Assembly: GCA_002763225.1 (NCBI GenBank)
Contig: PFAI01000030.1
Coordinates: 1-25,926 of the forward strand
From: Candidatus Diapherotrites archaeon CG10_big_fil_rev_8_21_14_0_10_31_34
GTDB lineage: Archaea > Iainarchaeota > Iainarchaeia > Iainarchaeales > 1-14-0-10-31-34
DNA length: 25,926 nt
Direction of reading: 5' to 3'
Part shown: positions 24,638 through 25,926 of the stretch, one piece after another
Layout of the letters: every line of letters starts with the position of its first letter
Position numbering within the stretch: position 1 is the first letter of the stretch
Made by a program: the position numbers and the translations under genes
Notes under the pieces: model-generated
The model's database searches: none
The model's input: only the letters and a program-made list of their open reading frames with translations
What the model was told of the DNA's origin: nothing

Positions 24638-24678
24638 GTAGTGTATAAACAAAAGATTTAAATAAATGTAGTGTATAA
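24638..24678 (+). promoter_or_regulatory. fic promoter: BRE-TATA flanked by 11-bp direct repeats
   Basis: GTAGTGTATAA at 24638 and 24668 around AAAAGATTTAAATA (24651-24664). Confidence 0.65.
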
Positions 24679-24685
24679 TATTTTT

Positions 24686-25588
24686 ATGGTTTTTATAAGA
24701 AAAATTAAGGGTTATTTTGTTTTGGCGCATTCTGTCAGAAAAGGAAAAAAAACAGTGCAGGAAACAAAATATGTCGGGAAAGTTTTGCCTTCAAAAGAAA
24801 GACTGGGGCAGTTAAAAAAAGAGTTTTTGAAGGAACTCAAAGGAAGAAAATACAAATATTTTTCCGGAGAAGAAGTAGAAGAAATTGAAAAAAAGAAAAC
24901 AGAATACTCCGTGGAAAGAAAAAAATTGAGTTCTCTGGAAAAAGAAAAATATTTCAAGAATTTCATGATAAGGTTTACTTATGACAGCAGCAAACTGTCA
25001 GGAGTTGACATTACATTAAGGCAGACGCACTTAATTCTCAAAGACGGCATTATCCCGAAAGATTTCAAGAACTTAAAGACAGTTAAAGAAATTGAAAACC
25101 ACGAAAAAGGCATTGTGGCAATAACAAAATATACAGGAAAACTGAATATTAAGTTCATAAAAAAACTGCATAAGATTCTTTTTGCAGGAGTCAGCAACGA
25201 AATAGCCGGAAAACTGAGAAGTGAACTGAAAAGAAATGTTAAAATTGGAGGGACTCCTTTTGTTCCCCCGAAATGGAATGAACTTGAGAGAGAACTAGAA
25301 AATTTTTTTAGCTGGTATAAATCTGAAAACAGAAGAATGCATCCTTTAGAGTTAGTAGCATTAATTCACTTAAAAATGGCTTCAATTCAGCCTTTTGTTG
25401 ACGGCAACAGCAGGCTGTCAAGGCTTTTAATGAACTGGATTTTATGGAAAAAAAGCTATCCATTAATTGACATAAAAATTGAGGAGCTGGAAAAGTATTA
25501 TAATGTTTTAGATGAATTCCAGATTGAAGGAAAAGAAAAGCCATTCATAAAATACATTAAAGAAAAATACTTAGATAGTAATAGCTGA
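24686..25588 (+). CDS. Fic/Doc family protein with degenerate active site
   Basis: IKKLHKILF, AGKLR, HPLELVALIH, QPFVDGNSRLSR (canonical HPFxDGNGRxxR); ATG 24686 fits a leaderless start. Confidence 0.9.
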   Translation: MVFIRKIKGYFVLAHSVRKGKKTVQETKYVGKVLPSKERLGQLKKEFLKELKGRKYKYFSGEEVEEIEKKKTEYSVERKKLSSLEKEKYFKNFMIRFTYDSSKLSGVDITLRQTHLILKDGIIPKDFKNLKTVKEIENHEKGIVAITKYTGKLNIKFIKKLHKILFAGVSNEIAGKLRSELKRNVKIGGTPFVPPKWNELERELENFFSWYKSENRRMHPLELVALIHLKMASIQPFVDGNSRLSRLLMNWILWKKSYPLIDIKIEELEKYYNVLDEFQIEGKEKPFIKYIKEKYLDSNS

Positions 25589-25908
25589 GAGAGGGATTCG
25601 AACCCTCGATCTTCCGCTTTCTGCTCCTTTTCTTTTTTTCCGAAAAAAGAAAAGGTGTAAGTTAGCCCAAAAGAAAAAAAGGAATTTGGCTAAAAACATT
25701 TTCTCTTTTTGAGCACTACTAAAACTTTTGGTTTTAGTGTGCACTTAATTTCTTTCTGAAATTAAGTTGCAACCTGCACTGGTTTTCTCTTTGGATGCTC
25801 ACGGCCTTTTTTTACCCTTTTTCTTTTGGTAGACCGTAGCTTTTCTTTTTCTGGAAAAAGAAAAGGTTGGAACTGCAGGCGGATGCATATCCTCTCTGCC
25901 ACCTCAGC
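25583..25908 (-). tRNA. tRNA-Cys(GCA), exons 25908-25873 and 25618-25583, with a 254-nt intron at 37/38
   Basis: Acceptor GCTGAGG/TCTCAGC plus U73; anticodon stem TCCGC/GCGGA with loop CT-GCA-G|A; T arm GAGGG-TTCGAAT-CCCTC; CCA not encoded. Confidence 0.95.
25619..25872 (-). other. BHB-type tRNA intron, 254 nt
   Basis: Canonical bulge-helix-bulge: CTGC/GCAG 4-bp helix, 3-nt bulges AG|T and AA|A, outer helix TCC/GGA. Confidence 0.92.
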
Positions 25909-25926
25909 TTAATTAAAGAAAGGGCT

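Follow-up and report, generated by a model that had tools for sequence, protein, structure and literature searches.

The stretch of DNA analyzed here (hereafter the window) comprises positions 1 to 25,926 of contig PFAI01000030.1 of Candidatus Diapherotrites archaeon CG10_big_fil_rev_8_21_14_0_10_31_34. Near its end it carries, on the minus strand, a gene for tRNA-Cys(GCA) interrupted by a long intron at the canonical position 37/38. We found that this intron is bounded by a canonical bulge-helix-bulge (BHB) splice motif and consists almost entirely of repeats, mainly of an element of about 60 nt, here termed element E, which is also found at other tRNA genes of this genome and of its relatives. 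The genome carrying the window is referred to as G000, its relatives by other G numbers, contigs by C numbers and sequencing runs as X1–X4. Gene coordinates are window positions and are collected in Table 1.

The interrupted tRNA-Cys gene and its splice motif

A first-pass annotation of the window, made without database searches, had proposed that two 36-nt exons rebuild a complete tRNA-Cys(GCA) with U73, and this was borne out. When the exons were joined by script, ARAGORN returned a tRNA-Cys(GCA) cloverleaf with a 7-bp acceptor stem, a 5-bp anticodon stem, a standard T arm with a GTTCGAATC-type loop, GCA at positions 34–36, and U73. The discriminator U73 is an identity element for cysteinyl-tRNA synthetase (CysRS). 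Exon 2 has the same sequence in G001–G005 as in G000, and both exons are the same or nearly so across the genus. Moreover, the junction defined by the BHB motif is gapless against the natural intronless tRNA-Cys genes of G035, G033, G019 and G015, each of which has G37 A38. Relative to the G035 gene, identity is 97% over positions 1–36 (35/36) and 94% over positions 37–72, that is, 69/72 in total.

The annotated intron length of 254 nt was reproduced, as was the proposed hBHBh' motif at 37/38. Helix h is the anticodon stem (5 bp), and the 5' bulge is A36 G37/U+1, the slash marking the cut. The central helix H pairs C32 U33 G34 C35 with G-3 A-4 C-5 G-6, all four pairs being Watson-Crick; the 3' bulge is A-2 A-1/A38, and h' pairs UCC (+2..+4) with GGA (-9..-7) over 3 bp. 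The site has the full archaeal hBHBh' arrangement: a 4-bp helix between two bulges of 3 nt, flanking helices h and h' each of 2 bp or more, and both cuts in the bulges. We estimated its chance occurrence by keeping the exons fixed and shuffling the intron 200,000 times. H of 4/4 was reached by 1,342 shuffles, and H of 4/4 together with h' of at least 3 bp by 67.

It had been suggested that standard tRNA finders might miss the gene, and they do: ARAGORN at default settings reports 0 tRNAs in the window, where no Rfam family, group I and group II introns included, reaches its gathering threshold. An Rfam E-value search of 25500–25926 returned 33 weak matches, all far under the gathering scores and none of them to a group I or II family. 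We took these as chance, the best scoring 23 bits against a gathering score of 100 and no snoRNA match coming near threshold. When introns are allowed, ARAGORN detects the gene, placing the boundaries 2 nt off and giving A37 rather than the G37 of the intronless relatives. The sense strand of the intron carries no C box (RUGAUGA), even at one mismatch, and no D box (CUGA), in agreement with the earlier remark that clear C/D boxes are missing there; one CUGA lies on the antisense strand. Nor does the intron contain a meaningful ORF (open reading frame), again as had been noted, the longest stop-free stretch being 57 aa with flanks included.

Table 1. Features at the tRNA-Cys locus (window positions)
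Feature	Coordinates	Strand	Description
tRNA-Cys exon 1	25908..25873	-	36 nt, positions 1–37; 3' end C32 U33 G34 C35 A36 G37
tRNA-Cys intron	25872..25619	-	254 nt, canonical position 37/38
tRNA-Cys exon 2	25618..25583	-	36 nt, positions 38–73; ends U73 (T at 25583); no encoded CCA
H 5' strand (C32–C35, anticodon loop)	25875..25878	-	From BHB scoring
H 3' strand GCAG (intron -6..-3)	25621..25624	-	Terminal motif of the antisense E copy
h' 5' strand UCC (+2..+4)	25869..25871	-	Partner GGA at 25625–25627
E copy 1, sense	25815..25866	-	Starts 6 nt past the 5' splice site; pyrimidine-loop-purine hairpin, spacer, purine run; nhmmer, covariance model, repeat finding
Middle partial E (spacer + purine run)	25699..25779	-	Split by the two-hairpin block; copies at C3, C27, C42, C51 with 82–86% identity (BLAST)
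Two-hairpin block (H2)	25713..25768	-	56 nt, nested in the spacer of the middle E unit
E copy 3, antisense	25619..25682	-	Ends exactly at the 3' splice site; nhmmer 2.7e-15, covariance model 76 bits
Convergent neighbour ORF, Fic/DOC family	24671..25588	+	305 aa; 6-nt overlap between its stop codon and the tRNA 3' end
First 18 nt of the 5' flank	25909..25926	-	Window end; contig C51 overlaps by 71 nt

Repeat composition of the intron

A BLAST search of the intron against G000 covered 232 of its 254 nt (91%) with copies at 10 other loci. By comparison, random 254-nt windows of G000 had a mean cover of 13.7%, with 5 of 300 covered to at least 90%, and random ORF-free windows of 120 nt had a mean cover of 21.5%. 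Element E runs from a CTGCCC end through a pyrimidine run, a short loop, a complementary purine run and a conserved spacer of about 13 nt to a second purine run. Three E units were recognised in the intron, one sense, one partial in the middle and one antisense, and it is because of this mosaic of a repeated, tRNA-associated element that the intron is 254 nt long. The last bases of the antisense copy, GCAGAA, are the H strand plus the two bulged As. Repeat finding detected both the inner hairpins and the long-range inverted repeats.

The two-hairpin block of the middle unit is absent at exactly that point from the 165-nt intron of G003, the closest relative, and from a 167-nt allele described below. 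In the G006 intron it stands inverted, at the equivalent spacer site of the 3' copy, and it also occurs in four free E copies of G000. A possible 3-nt TGC repeat flanks the block and is the only candidate for a target-site duplication.

We then surveyed the introns of G000 for BHB motifs in a free-register search, independent of the ARAGORN boundaries. Seven BHB-supported canonical introns are at least 100 nt long. Repeat cover in the other long introns is 96% for Asp, 100% for Arg(CCU), 100% for Arg(UCU), 96% for Leu(UAA) and 86% for Pro(UGG), and introns of 21–34 nt have zero cover.

tRNA-Cys genes of relatives

Sixteen interrupted tRNA-Cys genes could be rebuilt, all cut at 37/38, and the comparison of intron lengths gave a range of 47–254 nt with G000 the longest. 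In family f1 the introns measure 254 nt in G000, 165 in G003, 134 in G001, 145 in G004, 194 in G006, 102 in G002, 103 in G005 and 100 in G007. In other families they measure 88 nt in G010, 86 in G023, 47 in G029, 142 in both G071 and G047, 122 in G061, 114 in G059 and 74 in G064. The modules of the tRNA-Cys intron are the same and in the same order among relatives. E-like hairpins were found in the introns of f1 and of G010, G023, G029, G059 and G064, and unrelated G+C-rich hairpins in those of G047, G061 and G071. Among nine intron-bearing tRNA-Cys genes scored for the splice motif, H is 4/4 in four (G000, G003, G001 and G010).

To sample the order, an even draw of 91 genomes was searched with an intronless tRNA-Cys probe, and 35 gave a match. 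The match is contiguous across 36/37 in 22 of these 35 genomes and split in 13, with both states occurring within two families.

The upstream regions also differ among relatives. A TATA-like box lies about 18–35 nt upstream of tRNA-Cys (on C51 for G000) and is conserved in 6/6 genomes of genus g1, the flanks being otherwise variable. In the 5' flanks of G006, G007, G010, G023, G035, G047, G061 and G071, which represent many genera, we observed a short hairpin of the form CAAC-N-GTT that ends exactly at G1 of the tRNA; in genus g1 the TATA-like box stands in its place. This hairpin could be a leader-processing signal or another repeat targeting tRNA ends.

Element E in other tRNA genes and genomes

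In G000, nhmmer located 13 E loci, four in tRNA introns and nine in short intergenic gaps. Two of the intronic loci lie in tRNA-Cys, one in tRNA-Pro(CGG) by the BHB-aware reading, and one in a tRNA on C58 that runs off the contig and was read by eye as tRNA-Thr(UGU). The free copies stand in either orientation relative to the adjoining genes. Within this one genome, E forms sequence subfamilies and shows nested insertions and presence/absence alleles. A covariance model found E in 28 of the 61 order genomes searched, spread over many families, with 1–24 copies in each genome where it is present.

We fetched the best-match E loci (n = 30), and 13 of them lie inside tRNAs that ARAGORN reports as intron-containing. 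BHB-aware checking covered 12 of these 13 tRNAs, the thirteenth running off its contig. A spliced tRNA was obtained in 12/12 cases, 11 with H of at least 3 and h of at least 5 at 37/38, and G045 weak. In all 12 checked introns, which represent 8 anticodons, a sense-oriented E begins no more than a few nt from the 5' splice site, and the H strand is supplied by the 3' part, which is unique to each intron. Together with more in G006 and with the Pro-cgg and by-eye Thr-tgt genes of G000, E-bearing introns occur across tRNAs of at least 12 anticodons. The validated E introns are single and all lie at 37/38.

A census of G006 gave 24 E matches, of which 14 are in tRNA introns, 4 abut tRNA 3' ends and 6 lie elsewhere; 12 of 14 intron predictions in these loci pass BHB validation. 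The intronic copies can be divided into two kinds. First, 11 of the 14 are sense copies at the 5' splice site. Second, 3 of the 14 are antisense copies at the 3' end of long introns. The latter belong to the Asp (150 nt), Gln (201 nt) and Arg (216 nt) introns, where antisense E ends 0–3 nt before the 3' splice site, as in the design of the G000 Cys intron. The Asp and Gln introns also have a sense E at the 5' splice site, and the Arg intron has a degenerate E-like hairpin there. Where E abuts a tRNA, a sense copy starts 0–8 nt past the tRNA 3' end in 9 of 10 cases, the one exception being an antisense copy that ends at a tRNA 5' end. In every tRNA-associated case examined, the CTGCCC/GGGCAG end of E faces mature tRNA sequence. 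One tRNA cluster of this genome (G006:C1:393957-394727) holds five E copies in about 770 nt, with three intron-bearing tRNAs, each having a sense E at the 5' splice site, alternating with sense E directly past tRNA 3' ends.

The long pyrimidine-purine helix of E covaries across 38 aligned copies, in an alignment that was fitted to the model and holds related sequences: pairing holds in 89.9% of cells, and both sides have changed in 17 of 22 pairs. Cells with two-sided changes number 71, against 28 ± 4.9 in shuffles (0/500 reach 71), and slid controls give 0.13–0.20 against 0.317. A triple helix or an alternative pairing of the one pyrimidine and two purine runs was considered and dropped, since the runs are mirror-symmetric and the sequence alone cannot tell such pairings apart. 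Sense E opens with T-rich runs directly past tRNA 3' ends and past some stop codons. A role as an efficient transcription terminator was set aside as the main function, because the same runs lie just past the 5' splice site of many single-copy essential tRNAs. No Rfam family matches E, and neither a Y1 transposase (Y1_Tnp) nor TnpB (zinc ribbon) was detected in G000, which is 81% complete. At G000:C3:1380-1600, the 5' end of a pilin-like ORF occurs in two near-duplicate versions (…GGACA-GAATTTGAAGTA on both sides) with a long E copy between them; this copy is possibly an insertion with a long duplication, or an in-frame insertion.

What E is can be read in several ways. The variable copy number, the subfamilies, the nested insertions and the presence/absence alleles support the view that E behaves as a selfish repeat. 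More tentatively, and with the chances somewhat against it, E may be an intron-making module that has spread with fixed polarity to tRNA processing sites (after 37, before 38 and after the discriminator), its CTGCCC/GGGCAG terminus contributing to the splice-site helices. In tRNA-Cys, loop positions 32–35 are matched by an exact complement in the consensus terminus GGGCAGAA, with a 2-nt overhang, so that a ready-made BHB strand would arrive with the element. If this is true, the order illustrates the way in which archaeal tRNA introns are gained and enlarged, the spread possibly followed an RNA-level route tied to EndA/RtcB and not a transposase, and the 254-nt Cys intron would be the most inflated product.

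Another reading takes E as a functional RNA module, either a small structured RNA freed by tRNA processing or a cis-acting processing flank, with the tRNA-Cys intron as a host gene comparable to the tRNA-Trp intron and its C/D guide RNA. The fixed polarity of its CTGCCC end toward mature tRNA points in this direction, as do the sense copies near the 5' splice site in all 12 checked introns of other genomes and in 11 of the 14 intronic copies of G006, those just past tRNA 3' ends in 9 of the 10 abutting cases, the covariation of the helix at 17 of 22 pairs, and the spread over 28 of 61 genomes. We nevertheless consider it an unlikely explanation. The 22 order genomes with an intronless tRNA-Cys, out of 35 with a match, indicate that the intron is dispensable for the tRNA, and the number of E copies per genome ranges from 0 to 24. 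The variation within one genome resembles that of selfish repeats, the free copies of G000 take either orientation against neighbouring genes, and E has no Rfam counterpart. Moreover, the covariation comes from a model-fitted alignment, and palindromes may keep their pairing without selection at the RNA level. The selfish-repeat and functional-module readings are compatible with each other and not mutually exclusive.

Length alleles in the aquifer

Among the sequencing runs listed for the window were 24 DNA runs, all from groundwater or aquifer metagenomes except one from a hot spring, and no RNA run; by the titles of the matching records, the host is a groundwater DPANN archaeon. Contigs of run X1 tile 25543–25851 and 25854–25926 with 0 mismatches. 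Other genomic copies of the intron modules are only 82–88% identical, so these pieces are specific to the tRNA-Cys locus; X1 is possibly the source sample of the genome, and its support is for that reason not independent. In 4/4 runs compared we also found an intron allele of 167 nt, in which 25716–25811 (96 nt) is replaced by 9 nt. In X1 the pieces specific to the long allele have a depth of 17.8–19.9, against 14.8 for the joint of the short allele. Since this joint is present beside the long-allele pieces, the intron is polymorphic in length among co-occurring strains.

The 254-nt intron might be suspected of being an assembly artefact, a chimeric path through repeats, with a shorter allele as the real intron. 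The contig leaves 18 nt upstream of the gene, C51, the contig overlapping it, marks an assembly break 17 nt into the intron, repeats make up 91% of the intron, the 167-nt allele is present in all four runs, and the whole intron is spanned by no single Logan contig. We regard an artefact as very improbable, given the zero-mismatch X1 pieces (with the reservation on X1 made above), their depth relative to the short joint, and the relatives, which carry the same modules in the same order and, in G006, the same two-hairpin block.

Two further observations concern this locus in the runs. One X1 contig, at a depth of 3.9, joins 25624 to 25873, that is, exon 1 to the last 6 intron nt with 248 skipped and an unread stretch in between; it is probably the tRNA-Cys of another organism with a different intron. 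In X3 and X4, the tRNA-Cys 3' end and the Fic/DOC ORF of a near-identical strain are separated by about 980 additional nt. Window 25583–25596 stands on both sides of this extra segment, a pattern suggestive of an inserted element that has duplicated the tRNA 3' end in the manner of an att site.

Apparent requirement for the gene, and processing machinery

The G000 assembly comprises 1.04 Mb in 65 contigs with 30.8% G+C. ARAGORN reports 23 tRNAs at default settings and 39 with introns allowed, of which tRNA-Cys is 1. The intronless probe matches two split exons in G000 and, in addition, the end of contig C51; because C51 overlaps the window end by 71 nt, this last match is a contig junction and not a second copy. 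In the family of 9 genomes, the probe gives split exons only in 8 and no match in G008 (93% complete), whose tRNA-Cys was not located by the probe, and a contiguous copy in none. An intact tRNA-Cys elsewhere, which the first-pass annotation had named, together with the lack of a spliced product, as the sign of a disrupted copy, was found neither in the 65 contigs nor, as a contiguous gene, in the 7 same-family relatives giving a match, which are 90–99% complete.

The ORFs of at least 90 aa in G000 total 345,804 codons, of which 1.24% specify Cys. The splicing endonuclease EndA, of the single-unit alpha type, is encoded by a 172-aa ORF that contains both the N-terminal and the catalytic domain (PF02778, PF01974), and the ligase RtcB (PF01139) is present as well. 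Since there is a single tRNA-Cys along with CysRS, EndA, RtcB, Cys codons and a conserved TATA-like box, the gene looks required and expressed. That it should instead be a non-functional copy, inactivated by repeat insertions in the anticodon loop, is hardly credible: the T-rich runs on the intron sense strand and the incomplete genome speak for it, and against it stand the failure to find another tRNA-Cys in G000 or a contiguous one in the family, the exons conserved across the genus and matching the intronless orthologue at 69/72 positions, a BHB intact far beyond chance, and the presence of CysRS and Cys codons.

Two of the processing genes deserve mention in their own right. The Pfam match of RtcB is split (profile 1–50 and 49–426), the two parts lying about 1.5 kb apart in one 984-aa frame (G000:C60:39638-42454), probably because of an intein in the tRNA ligase. 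The CysRS is 84% identical to proteins of metagenome-assembled genomes (MAGs) labelled Ca. Iainarchaeum and Micrarchaeota, and 60–67% identical to those of other DPANN and several bacteria. In fact, it (G000:C23:9289-10197) is as near to bacterial MAGs (Omnitrophota 68%, Zixiibacteriota 64%, Verrucomicrobiota 60–64%) as to most other DPANN (62–67%), which hints at inter-domain transfer of the CysRS gene.

Proposed processing and predicted folding

We think it quite probable that the locus is a working single-copy tRNA-Cys(GCA) gene, whose canonical BHB intron is removed by EndA and RtcB and has been inflated to 254 nt by three E units, its length changing by gain and loss of modules. On this reading, transcription would start from the conserved TATA-like promoter. 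The anticodon stem, the four pairs between loop positions 32–35 and the intron end, and the 3-bp h' would form the canonical BHB, the single-unit alpha-type EndA would cut both 3-nt bulges, and RtcB would join the exons into a tRNA carrying G37. Once excised, the 254-nt intron would presumably be circularised. The intron would tolerate or attract E, and its length would drift through the gain and loss of repeat modules.

The predicted fold is consistent with this route. On its own, the intron has a folding energy of -76.6 kcal/mol (z = -6.08 relative to 200 dinucleotide-shuffled sequences). Its outer E copies are inverted repeats and are predicted to pair up as a long, imperfect rod enclosing the inner hairpins; stacked on h', this rod would keep the splice sites together whatever the length of the intron. 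The minimum free energy of the 326-nt precursor is -106.6 kcal/mol. Enforcing the cloverleaf, the anticodon stem and H costs +1.1 kcal/mol, and enforcing the full hBHBh' with its 3-nt bulges costs +3.2 kcal/mol over the minimum, h' stacking directly on the rod.

Several points weigh against a working gene of this kind. First, precursors with shuffled interiors pay +2.9 kcal/mol on average for the BHB fold, and 64 of 100 cost as little as the native +3.2 or less, so the native interior neither helps nor hinders this fold. In the unconstrained ensemble, moreover, the pair probabilities of the anticodon stem and H are only about 0.1. Second, the sense strand of the intron has T5, T5, T7 and T6 runs. 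Being similar to archaeal termination signals, such runs should reduce how much full-length pre-tRNA is made. Third, ORF-free DNA of G000 is generally repeat-rich, 27 of 300 random 120-nt ORF-free windows being covered to at least 90%. Fourth, with G000 at 81% completeness, a second tRNA-Cys could lie in the missing part for this genome alone. Fifth, H is only 2–3/4 in the other five of the nine tRNA-Cys genes scored. The alpha4-type splicing endonuclease is classically strict, and relaxed helices sit uneasily with that. For DPANN, PMC5829648 reports an additional loop in alpha4 enzymes and connects it with a higher number of disrupted tRNA genes.

Consequences for tRNA detection

Because default finders miss such genes, DPANN genomes may be wrongly scored as being without tRNA-Cys and other tRNAs. 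Searches that allow introns have a further difficulty. In its intron mode, ARAGORN mislabels several tRNAs of G000 (on contigs C13, C31, C45, C47 and C64), and it mislabels anticodons because its intron boundaries ignore the BHB motif. By BHB-aware identity, its 'Thr cgt' is Pro(CGG), its 'Glu ttc' is Gln(UUG), its 'Glu ctc' is Gln(CUG) and its 'Tyr gta' on C47 is Arg(UCU).

Comparison with known systems

The origin and spread of archaeal tRNA introns are unresolved, and a 2026 preprint finds no general arrival route for Asgard introns. In the order studied here, a recognisable element marks the introns of many tRNAs and does so with a strict splice-site polarity. It is also free in the genome and variable between co-occurring strains, and thus offers a concrete case for tracing how introns are gained and grow.

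In the position of its intron, its hBHBh' geometry, the lack of an encoded CCA and the presence of EndA and RtcB genes in the genome, the G000 gene agrees with canonical 37/38 BHB introns. It differs in size and composition. The review PMC4090602 gives 11–129 nt for archaeal tRNA introns, with medians of 12–25 nt, so that at 254 nt the Cys intron is about twice the upper bound of that source. The earlier description of the intron as 'unusually long' is therefore right against these published values and does not hold within the lineage, where other long introns are present. Unlike canonical introns, moreover, it is 91% genome-wide repeat, and default tRNA finders miss the gene. The same review describes the tRNA-Trp intron of Haloferax and other Euryarchaeota, which hosts a box C/D guide RNA. 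Both are long canonical introns carrying a structured RNA module; the Cys intron differs in having no sense-strand C/D boxes and in a module that is multi-copy and also occurs outside tRNA genes.

A closer likeness is found in Thermoproteales, for which intron families common to different tRNAs have been described as 'intron transposition' (Fujishima et al. 2010, as summarised in part of PMC4033280). In both lineages, similar intron sequences occur in tRNAs of many anticodons, which points to spread between tRNA genes. However, the validated E introns are single and all at the canonical 37/38, whereas transposed families of the Thermoproteales type are characterised by mostly non-canonical positions and multiple introns per gene. 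E is also a defined module anchored at the splice site with fixed polarity, the rest of each intron being unique. Furthermore, it abuts tRNA 3' ends, occurs free in intergenic gaps, and resides in a DPANN host with a single-unit EndA.

As a short, structured, multi-copy intergenic element with mosaics and with nested and presence/absence variants, E resembles the repetitive extragenic palindromic sequences (REPs), the bacterial interspersed mosaic elements (BIMEs) and repeats like those known as MITEs (miniature inverted-repeat transposable elements). Insertion polymorphism of the MITE/REP kind is seen in E as well, since the two-hairpin block is present in G000 and not in G003, and the 96-nt-to-9-nt allele occurs in 4/4 runs. 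Unlike these repeats, E comes with no Y1 transposase (of the REP-associated tyrosine transposase or IS200 type) or TnpB detected in the 81% complete G000, and unlike REPs it is strongly tied to tRNA processing sites, with fixed polarity there. A search of openly licensed PubMed Central papers and of bioRxiv yielded no account of a repeat that sits at DPANN tRNA splice sites with this polarity. The tRNA-Cys gene itself is ordinary in kind; the repeat-built intron and the polarity rule of E are the new part. The best-supported view is that of an ordinary splicing mechanism with an unusual intron cargo.

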